From NCBI GenBank assembly GCA_002099625.1, contig GCA_002099625.1_4857.1: a DNA stretch of 64,000 nucleotides. The stretch is one strand, 5' to 3'. How positions within the stretch are numbered: position 1 is the first letter of the stretch; each line of letters opens with the position of its first letter. The translations under genes were made by a program, and so were the position numbers. The notes below the pieces were generated by a model. The model had not been told where the DNA came from. It did not search any database and saw only the letters and a program-made list of their open reading frames with translations. This DNA is from Escherichia coli (lineage in GTDB: Bacteria > Pseudomonadota > Gammaproteobacteria > Enterobacterales > Enterobacteriaceae). Positions 5,644-9,965 of this stretch are shown one piece after another.

Positions 5644-6531
5644 ATGAAAAACGATTTGCATCTTGCGTATAAAACCACATTCAACCACCCGCTGCATCTA
5701 TCTTCCCCAGACTCGGTGCGTGCACACCTCGCTGACAAAGTCAGACTGATTGCACAGATTCCTGGTGAGTGGCCAAAGGTTCGTGGTCGCTTCTTGACCG
5801 ACAAGAAGAACTACACCGTAGAAAATACGTTTAAGATCCGTGATATGGTTGCAGAGGCCATCGTTATCTTTAACGGCGATGGTAACTCTCGCGGCGTGTT
5901 AGTCGACGGTAAGTATTTCTTCAGTGAAGGGATTTTGAACAACAGCGTCGATTTAGAACTGATGTTTACACCGTTTGACGAACTTGAAGCAAAACCGATG
6001 GCGCGCCGTTGGTGGAGTCCGGACTATCTGGGCTCGTTCCCTTACTACTTTGTACTGGTACCTGCCGATACGGAAACGTATTTCGACACCGAACCATACA
6101 TCGATATCGAGGGGTATAAAGAACTCGGCATCACCCGTTTAGCGGACATGATGGCGTATAGCTATAAGTTCGTGTGGGATAAAAAGCGTTCTGTCTGGTA
6201 TGCGCTGACTGACGATTTTGAAATCACCAAGCGTATTCGTAAGCCGTGGATGCAACACCTGGTTCAAACTCGATATGGGGATTACCCGGCGACAGAAGCG
6301 GATTTGAGTAAGCTGGTAAGTTTCCTCTTAACGAAGGTGGATTTAACGAAAGAAGAAGCAGAAGCTGTTTCTGAGATTCGTGGTCGTTCGGTAACGTTGG
6401 CCGATTTGAAACGTCTGAACGAAAGACACGCCGACCTGAACAAAATTTTAGCTGCCTATCACGACCCGATGTTACTGGTGCCTGGCGCTAACGTAGACGA
6501 AGATCCTTTATTCGCCATTGATTATATTTAA
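5644..6531 (+). CDS. hypothetical protein (Cys-peptide/rSAM operon member)
   Basis: 295-aa ORF with ATG start and GGAG RBS; no motif recognised; sits between peptide genes and rSAM genes. Confidence 0.55.
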   Translation: MKNDLHLAYKTTFNHPLHLSSPDSVRAHLADKVRLIAQIPGEWPKVRGRFLTDKKNYTVENTFKIRDMVAEAIVIFNGDGNSRGVLVDGKYFFSEGILNNSVDLELMFTPFDELEAKPMARRWWSPDYLGSFPYYFVLVPADTETYFDTEPYIDIEGYKELGITRLADMMAYSYKFVWDKKRSVWYALTDDFEITKRIRKPWMQHLVQTRYGDYPATEADLSKLVSFLLTKVDLTKEEAEAVSEIRGRSVTLADLKRLNERHADLNKILAAYHDPMLLVPGANVDEDPLFAIDYI

Positions 6532-6553
6532 AAATATACTGGAGCAACCTGCA

Positions 6554-7468
6554 ATGACAGATCAAGTAGAATCCAGGATCTCGTCTGAACTGTACGACAA
6601 ACCGTCAATTCTGTCGGTTGTCGCAACTTCTAAGTGTAACTTAGACTGTAGCTTCTGTGGAGGGGCTTATTACATGGATAGAGAAGATACTTCTCGTGAG
6701 TTTCAACGTGAAGAGATTCTCTCGATTTTAGAGAAGAATCCGGATATCGGTGAGATTCATTGGACGGGCGGTGAGCCGCTGTTAGCGCAGCGTAAGATTG
6801 AAGACTTCGTGAACGAGTTGAAGGAGTCTCATCCGAACCTCCGTCATCACATGTACACCAACGGTTTAAAGATGCGTAAATCACATCTGCCGTTGCTGAA
6901 ACAGTTCGACCTTATCTTTGTGTCCATTGACGGCTACAAGAAGTCGGAACGTCCGTTTATGAACTTTGTAAACGGTGGTAATCACGAAGCGCTGGAAGTG
7001 CTGTACGAGCTGGACAATTATTACACCTGGGGTGTGATGACGCGTGACCAGTTAGGCGATAAACGCTGGTACGAAGATTTCATCGAGCTGCACCGAGCAA
7101 TCTATCATTACCGTCCAGGTGGTGTGTCGTTGTTGTTTGATGCGATGATGCCGAAACCGTTATCGCCAGACCACGTCATGAACTTCATGTACGGGTATTG
7201 GAAAATACTCGACAATATCGAACGCCTTAACATGCAGAACGACTCTGAATGTGGGCTTGCGATCAGTAAAATGTTCGATACCGAGTGCAACACGTGCAGT
7301 GAAGTGCTGTGGCTTAACGCCGACGGTACGCAGGAGCAAATTCAGAACGCCCCAGAGATATTGGAAGTCGGCTGTAATCGCCTGGCGCGTTCTATCGGCG
7401 TTGATGCGTATAACTACATCAACCGTGTAATTTCTGCTAAGCGTAAACGGGCGGCGAACAATGAGTAA
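6554..7468 (+). CDS. radical SAM enzyme (putative peptide/protein-modifying maturase)
   Basis: ORF 6518-7468 trimmed to ATG 6554 (GGAG upstream; 6518 appears to be TTG); CNLDCSFC = CxxxCxxC 4Fe-4S/SAM motif; WTGGEPLL SAM-binding glycine motif; four C-terminal Cys (partial auxiliary-cluster region). Confidence 0.75.
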   Translation: MTDQVESRISSELYDKPSILSVVATSKCNLDCSFCGGAYYMDREDTSREFQREEILSILEKNPDIGEIHWTGGEPLLAQRKIEDFVNELKESHPNLRHHMYTNGLKMRKSHLPLLKQFDLIFVSIDGYKKSERPFMNFVNGGNHEALEVLYELDNYYTWGVMTRDQLGDKRWYEDFIELHRAIYHYRPGGVSLLFDAMMPKPLSPDHVMNFMYGYWKILDNIERLNMQNDSECGLAISKMFDTECNTCSEVLWLNADGTQEQIQNAPEILEVGCNRLARSIGVDAYNYINRVISAKRKRAANNE

Positions 7469-8789: not shown

Positions 8790-9318
8790 ACTGCACTTGG
8801 TCGATCGCTTCCTGCGCAAAAGCAAGCTGTACAATGTGCACGCAATTGTGGCAGGGGAAGACTTCACTGATGAAATCCAAAGCCTGTTGATTAAATACGG
8901 GCTGAATGTGATGATCCCGGTCTACTGCGTTGAGAAAGGACACGAGTCTGTCGCGGAAATCGAAAAGCGCAACCCTGGCTTTGAGAAGCGACTGCTTGCA
9001 TACCCACGCCACAAAATCGAACTGCTACGTCACTCTATTGATGAAGCCAGTCCTGAAAGTTTAGTGGCATTGGGCTTGTCATTCCCGCGGATGCGTATTC
9101 GTAACTTACGCTCCAATAACCCGGTTGACGCTTATTACACAGAACGTCAAATCTTCGAAGAACACCTGCTCCCGCAGTTGGAAGAAGAAGAGCAACACAA
9201 CATTTCTCTGTTGTGGGCCGGTAACCTCGATCAGGACTTCCAGATGCTGGACTTCGGTTTGTTGTTAGAACTTGGCCTGATTGAGGAGGACGAATGTCTG
9301 TTACTGACAAAAGCTTAA
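8752..9318 (+). CDS. hypothetical protein (operon member)
   Basis: ORF 8704-9318 (apparently GTG start) trimmed to ATG 8752 with GGAG at 8742-8745; overlaps end of rSAM gene; no motif recognised. Confidence 0.45.
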   Translation: MKSILIHNFTKRKLHLVDRFLRKSKLYNVHAIVAGEDFTDEIQSLLIKYGLNVMIPVYCVEKGHESVAEIEKRNPGFEKRLLAYPRHKIELLRHSIDEASPESLVALGLSFPRMRIRNLRSNNPVDAYYTERQIFEEHLLPQLEEEEQHNISLLWAGNLDQDFQMLDFGLLLELGLIEEDECLLLTKA

Positions 9319-9965
9319 CGAACGAAGAGATCCGCGCCCGTTATTTCCAGCGCGATTTGCCGATTGATCGTCACGGTAATTTCATGGAACGAATCGGTGC
9401 GCAGGATCAGGGTCGTACTGGATTTTGTGCATTACTCCATTACCATCTCATCGAAGGGATGTCTGATAAAGAAGCCCTGGCACGCATGAAGCTGTATGAG
9501 ATGTCGGAGATTGAAGCTAACTTCACATTGAAACGCACGAAAGAGTTTATTGCTAATGTGCTGGAGATTGACCTCGACGAAATTCGCGGGAATCTGAAAT
9601 CTACCGCACGTTACATTTACGAAGACGTGCAGAAGATGCTGTTGGAACTTGACCATCGCTACGAAGATGAGCGCCATGGTTATATCGAGTTTGAAGGTAG
9701 CCACTTTCAAGCCGATGAATCGTCGCGTACCATCCTCGGTCAATATATTCAGGCGGATACCGCACCAGAATACTGGCTCGATACGCTGAATACTAAGCAC
9801 AGTCCGTTTACAGTAGACCAATGTAAAGCGTTGTTGGCCGCTATTGTTGCACGTGACCAAGTGTTGCACTCAGCAATGGCAGATAACAAACGCCAAATCC
9901 GTGAGTTGGCTGAAAAGCGCGATTACACTGGATTAAAAACATTGTCCGAATCTCTCGGCATGTAA
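9294..9965 (+). CDS. hypothetical protein (last gene of operon)
   Basis: 223-aa ORF; GAGGAGGA RBS then ATG; overlaps previous ORF by 25 nt; followed by terminator. Confidence 0.5.
   Translation: MSVTDKSLTNEEIRARYFQRDLPIDRHGNFMERIGAQDQGRTGFCALLHYHLIEGMSDKEALARMKLYEMSEIEANFTLKRTKEFIANVLEIDLDEIRGNLKSTARYIYEDVQKMLLELDHRYEDERHGYIEFEGSHFQADESSRTILGQYIQADTAPEYWLDTLNTKHSPFTVDQCKALLAAIVARDQVLHSAMADNKRQIRELAEKRDYTGLKTLSESLGM

Follow-up and report, generated by a model that had tools for sequence, protein, structure and literature searches.

A candidate cytoplasmic maturation module of two radical-SAM enzymes and soluble partner proteins in the late structural region of an SPN3US-like jumbo phage

Closest described systems and the locus

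Bacteriocin clusters of the RiPP class (peptides made by the ribosome and then modified post-translationally) on phages and prophages, for example that of sublancin on SPbeta, encode an ABC exporter/peptidase together with immunity genes and serve the lysogen. Here we examine an operon that, like these clusters, places RiPP-type enzymes on a phage genome. It lies in a 64,000-nucleotide stretch of contig GCA_002099625.1_4857.1 (Escherichia coli assembly GCA_002099625.1), called the window below. Unlike the sublancin-type clusters, the operon has no exporter or immunity genes, and its place is among the late structural genes of a jumbo phage that is strictly lytic. Positions 4500-10000 match Salmonella phage SPN3US and related phages (Seoulvirus; jumbo phages related to phiKZ) at 98-99% identity; in SPN3US numbering, the order on the + strand is gp168, gp167, a poorly annotated stretch, gp165, gp164 and gp163 (both radical S-adenosylmethionine, or radical-SAM, enzymes), gp162 and gp161. 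The system is best described as a phage-structural variant of radical-SAM/SPASM peptide maturation. We lean towards reading positions 5644-9965 as the cytoplasmic maturation half of a phage operon whose products are small Cys-rich proteins of fibre type that keep their N-terminal domain. Within this half, gp165, gp162 and gp161 would be soluble cytoplasmic helpers that have no role in export, cleavage or immunity. The genes concerned are the following.

4592..4984, + strand: Cys-rich protein A, 130 aa, 21 Cys after a conserved N-domain of 49 aa; phrog_6085 at 5e-40
4995..5399, + strand: Cys-rich protein B, 134 aa, 20 Cys; phrog_6085 at 3e-41
5415..5621, + strand: Cys-rich protein C, 68 aa, GTG start, 4 Cys, same N-domain; phrog_6085 at 3e-24
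5644..6531, + strand: gp165-like protein, 295 aa, soluble and Cys-free, with an orphan alpha/beta fold; core partner directly upstream of the short radical-SAM gene
6554..7468, + strand: gp164-like short radical-SAM enzyme; PF04055 at 1e-15, CX3CX2C motif and three conserved Cys in the C-terminal part, without a full SPASM domain
7461..8789, + strand: gp163-like radical-SAM/SPASM maturase; best NCBIfam match the CXXX-repeat maturase family TIGR04115 (3e-36; 125.6 bits, cutoff 350)
8752..9318, + strand: gp162-like protein, 188 aa, partial (beta/alpha) barrel like the radical-SAM core, without the cluster Cys motif
9294..9965, + strand: gp161-like DUF4376 protein, 223 aa; PF14301 at 2.4e-9, 38.1 bits against a cutoff of 25, residues 121-205

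The gp162 start (MKS) was fixed by alignment of 22 homologues, the mechanical open reading frame (ORF) starting at 8704. Consecutive genes from gp164 through gp163 and gp162 to gp161 overlap by 8, 38 and 25 nt, and the four are tightly coupled in translation.

In the CXXX-repeat system of bacteria (TIGR04115 maturase, TIGR04114/TIGR04117 targets), for which no experimental characterization was found in the searchable literature, maturase and substrate are adjacent and the substrate carries C-x-x-x repeats rich in Ser/Gly. The window has both properties: tandem Cys-Xaa-Xaa-Xaa repeats are present in the adjacent substrates, with a Cys-Cys spacing of exactly 4 in 17 of the 20 intervals of protein A and 16 of the 19 of protein B. 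Scored with the TIGR04114 CXXX-repeat model, the Cys-rich proteins reach 18.4 (A), 17.1 and 13.7 bits, all just under the cutoff of 20. For gp163, TIGR04115 is the best family, though the score stays below its curated 350-bit cutoff. Compared with the bacterial family, the window is phage-borne, its maturase scores far lower, and its type of substrate has the repeats behind a fibre-like N-domain of 50 aa or behind an entire fibre protein; it also adds a second radical-SAM enzyme, gp165 and gp162.

The ranthipeptide and sactipeptide maturases (PapB for freyrasin, CteB, StsB) are, like gp163, of SPASM type, and PapB is the second-best NCBIfam match of gp163 (NF047865, 1e-32, 113.6 bits against 340). 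The many closely spaced in-line Cys of the window proteins suggest a series of small thioether rings like those of PapB products. In contrast to the PapB, CteB and StsB systems, Asp and Glu are absent from the cores of the Cys-rich proteins, no RiPP recognition element (RRE) was detected, and neither exporter nor protease accompanies the enzymes; the products are probably proteins of 68-134 aa rather than short peptides. In gp163 itself there is no N-terminal RRE, its cluster motif beginning at residue 23. A PapB-type assignment finds no support, as gp163 scores below the 340-bit cutoff and the Cys-X3-Asp/Glu acceptor motifs are missing.

In architecture the window also recalls the HXS anti-phage system (HxsA-D), whose two radical-SAM enzymes, with a small partner, carry out the maturation of a protein that bears repeats, and for which a dedicated exporter or peptidase has not been reported (PMC13128918). 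Both have one SPASM-type and one shorter radical-SAM enzyme, a small non-enzymatic partner (needed for maturation in HXS), a protein substrate with short tandem repeats, and no gene for a dedicated ABC exporter or leader peptidase. The likeness is confined to architecture. Against HxsB, gp163 scores 75.1 bits (5e-21; cutoff 370); HxsC ranks third among the NCBIfam matches of gp164 (E 6e-12; 45 against 267.9 bits), all of which lie far below cutoff; and gp165 has no similarity to HxsD (TIGR03976), so that none of them can be called an HXS equivalog. HxsA carries a Sec signal peptide and acts in the host periplasm in defence (PMC13128918), whereas the window system is phage-encoded, without signal peptides and linked to fibres.

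The CX3CX2C motif of gp164 is intact in all lineages, given true start codons. Its apparent loss from the short radical-SAM enzyme of CR5-like phages, called at 259 aa, was rejected: in-frame translation upstream gives an intact CNLNCSFC, and the annotated starts are therefore wrong. In CR5 and related contigs (L005 8848-9798 and L007 6249-7124), the annotated start leaves out the CX3CX2C motif, and the true start lies about 30 codons upstream, overlapping the end of the gp165-like gene.

Soluble partners of the radical-SAM enzymes

A first-pass annotation of the window had described the 295-, 188- and 223-aa proteins (gp165, gp162 and gp161) as free of Walker motifs, peptidase signatures and transmembrane (TM) segments, and our motif, hydropathy and profile scans agree. 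The motif scan of the three found no Walker A, ABC signature or HExxH motif. Using a TM threshold of 1.6 (mean Kyte-Doolittle value over 19 residues), hydropathy found no TM segment in any of them, the maxima being 0.82 for gp165, 1.35 for gp162 and 0.96 for gp161, and none has a signal-peptide-like N-terminus. Neither Pfam, NCBIfam, PHROGs nor PADLOC returned a transporter, peptidase, immunity or PqqD/RRE family for the three; the only curated match was DUF4376 in gp161. Profiles of gp165, gp162 and gp161 (38, 22 and 14 homologues, respectively) gave empty or chance-level results against all PDB sequences. A transporter or peptidase fold, an observation that would count against this description, was detected neither in the profile searches of all three proteins nor in the models of gp165 and gp162. 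The annotation had further suggested an RRE-like winged-helix leader-binding domain in these proteins. This part did not hold, as no PqqD-like winged-helix beta3-alpha3 element was found by hidden Markov model (HMM) searches of the accessory proteins or by structure comparison of gp165 and gp162.

The absence of export functions extends beyond the three proteins. No ORF of at least 100 aa in the whole 64 kb has both a Walker A motif and an ABC signature, and none reaches three TM segments. The dedicated exporter of a bacteriocin-type RiPP cluster is missing here, and no transporter was found in eight related loci either. A leader peptidase (C39, S8, M16 or similar) with a conserved cleavage motif is likewise missing, as is an immunity protein, the operon encoding no membrane protein: the gp159 lipoprotein lies outside it, beyond the terminator, and the two-TM 'gp166' is a frame artefact.

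The AlphaFold2 model of gp165 (predicted local distance difference test, pLDDT, 90.0; predicted template modelling score, pTM, 0.85) has a fold that matches none of the solved structures. No RRE-like match was obtained for gp165, although residues 151-246 run strand-strand-strand-helix-helix-helix. The region common to distant relatives comprises the last strands and the C-terminal helical region. The family is narrow, its profile giving just 50 matches among 1.84 billion representative proteins, and the 37 members scanned contain no Pfam domain and no peptidase family; the idea that the remote relatives are proteins of known domain type was rejected on this ground. Close relatives share invariant His, Asp, Glu and Lys residues, yet no column stays invariant after the remote relatives are added, which argues against a conserved catalytic centre. 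Gene order and co-occurrence point to a role for gp165 as a substrate-presenting or scaffold subunit, which we propose.

The model of gp162 (pLDDT 90.5, pTM 0.84) resembles a radical-SAM core as a partial barrel. The protein has neither the CX3CX2C motif nor a PF04055 match, so that it falls outside the radical-SAM superfamily as usually defined. A diverged copy of gp163 or gp164 was considered and rejected, with hhalign probabilities of at most 3%; the resemblance is at the level of the fold only. The model suggests that gp162 is probably a non-catalytic auxiliary subunit of the maturation complex.

By its domain content, gp161 is a probable tail-fibre assembly chaperone. DUF4376 occupies its C-terminal half, the N-terminal half being lineage-specific, and PF14301 is precomputed for nearly all full-length homologues; gp161 itself was found in SPN3US-like loci only. 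Experimental literature describes DUF4376 chaperones on which tail fibres depend for their function in Alteromonas phage V22 and in a Campylobacter prophage, and the domain has been likened to the C-terminus of TfaMu. These chaperones (V22 gp27, the Campylobacter CJIE1 H-fibre chaperone, TfaMu-like C-termini) share the PF14301 domain with gp161, in which it scores above threshold; the gp161 gene closes a fibre-linked operon, and its product is absent from virions. It differs in lying downstream of radical-SAM enzymes instead of directly after a large fibre gene; its client may be gp167, gp168 or the Cys-rich proteins. In PMC5694885, the main text names gp161 as a head protein of paralog family B. 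We reject this assignment and treat it as a slip for gp160, because Supplementary Table 1 of that paper lists gp160 and an in-window phmmer search agrees, finding gp160 paralogues at 22429-23925 and 19071-20513 (- strand) and none for gp161.

Cys-rich proteins, related loci and virion composition

The first ~50 residues of the Cys-rich proteins form a domain of the pattern MAISLKDVxxRL...YIAxK..NNANxLxG....Y, followed by a near-invariant CxGxCSW. In the alignment, C50, C54 and W56 (protein A numbering) are invariant or nearly so, and CxGxCSW alone makes up the conserved core of protein C. The C-type paralogue is reduced to two or three Cys in five lineages (L005 7781-7990, L007 5103-5312, L008 5094-5303, L012 8786-8995 and L013 8808-8990; window counterpart 5415-5621). 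The Cys kept are those of CxGxCSW or CxGCSW, with one upstream Cys added in L008. Since the short C paralogues retain little else, this motif points to a minimal conserved site of recognition or modification. Proteins A, B and C with the 50-aa N-domain recur as three orthologous paralogues in seven locus types, and their conservation as a triad suggests that they may form a heterotrimer. The alignment contains no conserved double-Gly or other cleavage motif. Against solved fibre structures, the N-domain gave a sole match at chance level, to a designed coiled coil (E 0.09).

SPN3US leaves all three genes unannotated, whereas Escherichia phage Lh1B annotates them. SPN3US gp166 (GenBank, RefSeq; window 5068-5403, + strand) is a wrong-frame ORF over gene B (4995-5399) that reads as a Val/Ala-rich two-TM pseudo-membrane protein. 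Metagenome gene callers similarly place opposite-strand or wrong-frame ORFs on Cys-rich genes (L004 6933-7742, L005 6964-7332, L012 8553-8765, L013 8498-8824). Because automatic callers choose the wrong ORFs, the Cys-rich family is under-represented in protein databases.

The conserved gene order, namely a giant fibre-like protein, a gp167-like protein, the A/B/C triad, gp165, the short radical-SAM enzyme, the SPASM radical-SAM enzyme, gp162 and gp161, is kept in Cronobacter phage CR5 and Erwinia phage Wellington, where gp161 is just 32-35% identical, and in metagenomic jumbo-phage contigs at 40-45% identity. An HMM survey covered nine locus types, five of them SPN3US-like and the others represented by L009 (group L009 to L011), L012, L013 and L014. 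In all nine, always on phage DNA, a gp165 relative occurs with a short radical-SAM enzyme, a gp163-type SPASM radical-SAM enzyme and a CXXX Cys-rich protein. The gp165 relative lies directly upstream of the short radical-SAM gene each time, even where the tails of the lineages are otherwise unrelated; relatives of gp162 were found in seven of the nine, and the triad in the five SPN3US-like types, L012 and L013. Four remote gp165 matches traced back to their contigs gave the same picture (4/4 directly upstream of a short radical-SAM gene and a gp163-type SPASM gene, with CXXX ORFs alongside). No surveyed locus contains a transporter or leader-type peptidase, and in most lineages examined the gene set adjoins fibre or lysis genes.

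The most informative of these loci is L009, whose group includes one member annotated from Desulfoluna butyratoxydans (locus of WP_180138332.1). Its relative of gp165, with an hhalign probability of 97.7%, comes after a tail-tip module of lambda-like type that consists of DUF2460, Phage_tail_L, NlpC/P60 and a 1256-aa GpJ-like protein, and its last radical-SAM enzyme is 39% identical to gp163 over 383 aa. Directly before the gp165 relative lies a protein of 258 aa that contains HxH...RYYTE...N.KL repeats; its match to the phage tail repeat PF12789 reaches 21.2 bits, below cutoff. This protein ends in '...NASKLAGQTSGYYRCSGCSWTCTTNC...' / '...STAANASKLAGQTSGYYRCSGCSWTCTTNCTGRCDNTCSSSC...', i.e. 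with the junction motif and CXXX tail of the Cys-rich proteins of the window; the common junction is NAxxLxGxxxxYxCxGCSWTC, and the HMM of the N-domain proteins matches at E 1.8e-6. The pattern 'NAxxLxGxxxSxY', which may be a general tail-fibre motif, is backed here only by this fusion protein. Two further features of L009 are a run of three radical-SAM genes instead of two (10840-13668) and a 180-aa protein with a thrombospondin type-1 domain (TSP1_ADAMTS, 49.6 bits; 15410-15952), which is odd for a phage tail region.

In L013 the gene set lies between Peptidase_S74 tail fibres and an amidase, with a relative of the gp167 N-domain beside the radical-SAM genes. The S74 domains are self-cleaving chaperone domains of the fibres. 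In L014 a 575-aa protein, fibre-like by eye only, is followed by a 69-aa CXXX peptide, a gp165 relative and two radical-SAM enzymes. In L012 the triad stands with gp165, both radical-SAM enzymes and gp162.

The virion proteome of SPN3US lists 86 proteins, low-copy ones included. Among them are gp160, gp167, gp168-170, gp155 and gp157, and gp161-166 are absent (PMC5694885). The absence of the five enzyme and accessory proteins from purified virions is as expected for maturation factors. In the same study, gp168-170 are missing from tailless particles, making them baseplate/fibre candidates, gp167 is in virions and not flagged as head, and gp155 was classed as a head protein since it was found in tailless particles, despite its GP38 adhesin domain (PMC5694885). 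The gp160 protein is present at >300 copies per particle, and gp168 resembles phiKZ gp131. The following features surround the operon.

10..3276, + strand: gp168-like giant baseplate/fibre protein, paralog family C, C-terminal 1088 aa; synteny with SPN3US_0168, the gene extending past the window start
3288..4526, + strand: gp167-like virion protein, 412 aa, N-terminal domain and long coiled coil; phrog_2163 virion structural protein at E 5e-108, coiled-coil Pfam matches
4534..4570, + strand: stable hairpin and U-run between gp167 and the first Cys-rich gene; minimum free energy -24.1 kcal/mol, z = -3.9
9983..10006, both strands: bidirectional intrinsic terminator, 10-bp stem with 7 GC pairs, T-runs on either strand; ends the + operon and the convergent gp160
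10047..10574, - strand: gp160-like DUF7941 protein; PF25613 at 1e-10

The first-pass annotation had placed the operon inside a fibre module, and this is borne out by gp168-170 as baseplate/fibre candidates, by gp167 as a non-head virion protein, and by gp155, a 725-aa protein (13466-15643, - strand) that joins an N-terminal DUF7941 module to a GP38 tail-fibre adhesin domain (66 bits). The gp168-like protein has no Pfam match. The hairpin at 4534-4570, with a 15-16 bp stem followed by UUCUACUUUUU, stands directly 3' of the gp167 stop codon and was not equalled in folding by any of 200 shuffles; it is terminator- or attenuator-like and may lower the expression of the Cys-rich and maturation genes. 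No Rfam family was found within 3000-11500.

Just past the operon terminator and near the endolysin, the gp159-like gene (10698-11189, + strand) encodes a 163-aa protein whose start, MKRLFIVFAIINLLAGC, is a lipobox-containing lipoprotein signal; Pfam returned no match for this protein, which could be a spanin or an exclusion lipoprotein. The gp158-like protein (11315-11830, - strand) has a sub-threshold Peptidase_M15_3 match (16.8 against 23.2 bits) and carries SMHKFGNAFD, which resembles the SxHxxGxAxD of LAS-type cell-wall peptidases; its gene belongs to a lysis cluster adjoining a GH108 endolysin (12770-13423), and it is not a leader peptidase.

Proposed route, competing readings and meaning

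To explain how these genes may act together, we propose that gp163 and gp164 would join the Cys of the (C-x-x-x)n tails by cross-links of thioether type, which could be made in the reducing cytoplasm, where disulfides cannot form. Such links could brace the proteins covalently and independently of disulfide formation. Holding or presenting the substrate to the short radical-SAM enzyme would fall to gp165, in a role analogous, though not in sequence, to that of HxsD with HxsC or of a discrete RRE protein. The cluster-less, radical-SAM-like gp162 would be a non-catalytic subunit of the complex, and gp161 would help the finished proteins to oligomerize or to mount on the fibre/baseplate apparatus (gp167-170). 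The ~50-aa N-terminal domain is probably kept rather than removed as a leader, because it is conserved as three orthologous paralogues and a complete fibre shaft takes its place in L009. The product would then join the host-recognition apparatus of the virion, and ordinary phage lysis would suffice for its release.

The first-pass annotation had argued, from the lack of an exporter or protease, that the product stays in the infected cell or on the virion. A lytic phage needs no exporter or immunity gene, since lysis releases the contents and the host dies, and many RiPP clusters depend on host proteases. Because lysis frees the cell contents, the absence of such genes cannot separate a product released at lysis from one kept on the virion, and this argument is weak when taken alone. 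The virion side of the claim gains independent support from the L009 fusion, the DUF4376 domain of gp161, the neighbourhood of fibre and lysis genes, and the absence of the enzymes and helpers from virions.

These same observations bear on what else the operon could make. A soluble RiPP freed at lysis, acting as a diffusible toxin, signal or anti-competitor peptide, would have its leader cut by host proteases and lysis in place of an exporter, with the three helper proteins as tailoring or recognition factors. The RiPP-like enzyme set, with its best matches to CXXX-repeat and PapB-type maturases, the small substrates (68-134 aa), the nearby lysis cassette with the GH108 endolysin, the L014 peptide of 69 aa that is almost without N-domain, and the lack of the products in the published virion proteome all fit such a peptide. 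We nevertheless consider it unlikely, given an N-domain conserved as three orthologous paralogues in seven locus types and replaced by a whole fibre-repeat protein in L009, the lack of any conserved double-Gly or other cleavage motif, the translational coupling of a DUF4376 fibre chaperone to the operon, and the position of most loci beside fibre genes. A product that is never packaged, serving inside the cell as a metal/Fe-S sink, a redox buffer or a decoy against host defence, would agree with the missing signal peptide and exporter, with 20-21 Cys that recall metallothionein, and with enzymes and products unreported in virions. It would leave the L009 tail-fibre fusion, the fibre-module position and the DUF4376 chaperone unexplained, and the genes belong to the late structural part of the genome instead of the early set for host takeover; we regard such a product as distinctly unlikely.

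The helpers could instead have no part in peptide modification and be ordinary tail-assembly factors that happen to neighbour the radical-SAM genes. A fibre chaperone is the sole recognizable domain of gp161, gp161 is missing from distant loci, and none of the three proteins has an RRE or enzyme signature. What makes this improbable is the co-occurrence: gp165 relatives stand directly upstream of the short radical-SAM gene in nine of nine locus types, and gp162 relatives are found in seven. Genes of the group also overlap the radical-SAM genes, and the virion contains none of the three proteins, even though tail proteins of low copy number were detected in it. A leader peptidase or export function hidden in the novel fold of gp165, which would turn the operon into a complete bacteriocin-type cluster, is very improbable. 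That fold does match nothing solved, and its close family does keep invariant His, Asp, Glu and Lys; these columns dissolve once the remote relatives are included, gp165 has no TM segments, and none of the 37 members searched against Pfam belongs to a peptidase family.

Several points weigh against the Cys-rich proteins as cross-linked virion components. The score of gp163 is far below the TIGR04115 and PapB cutoffs, and the cross-link chemistry is what we infer from sequence; with Asp and Glu missing from the cores, acceptors of PapB type are absent. In view of its orphan fold, gp165 could have a cryptic activity, enzymatic or proteolytic. In L012 no recognized tail genes lie within 9 kb. The Cys-rich proteins have never been reported in virions; published SPN3US mass-spectrometry searches could not have matched them because the genes are unannotated, and tryptic peptides of their N-domains include VQIVEANMATGPR, IDAQVASK, LNTIDANALK, NTTNVQNYIR and ATNNADLFAGQGR. 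Finally, SPN3US proteomics assigns the neighbours gp155, gp157 and gp160 to the head, whereas a preprint proposes DUF7941 proteins as fibre-forming in phage Goslar, and this conflict leaves the 'fibre module' label unsettled for some neighbours.

For the annotation of SPN3US, the results mean that three real genes are missing from the reference and that one annotated gene, gp166, is a frame artefact. As this phage already has amber-mutant genetics and virion proteomics, the reading of the operon as a maturation module for fibre-type proteins can be tested there. The gp165 family emerges as a conserved orphan-fold partner that may stand in for an RRE in substrate recognition. A literature search on radical-SAM-modified phage fibres or CXXX-repeat maturases found no paper. 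More tentatively, and with some doubt, we suggest that the operon is the first known to cross-link a structural protein of a virus by radical-SAM chemistry, through a portable module (CXXX tail, gp165-family partner, two or three radical-SAM enzymes) that staples fibre tips with serial thioether rings while they are still in the reducing cytoplasm. If true, phages as unlike as the jumbo myoviruses of enterobacteria and a lambda-like element of Desulfobacterota would have this module in common; the module would provide redox-proof, protease-resistant host-recognition fibres without a leader peptidase or exporter, and would give the uncharacterized CXXX-repeat radical-SAM family its first functional context. 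RiPP-type radical chemistry would then build a part of the virion rather than a secreted natural product, which would constitute a new category of phage structural maturation.

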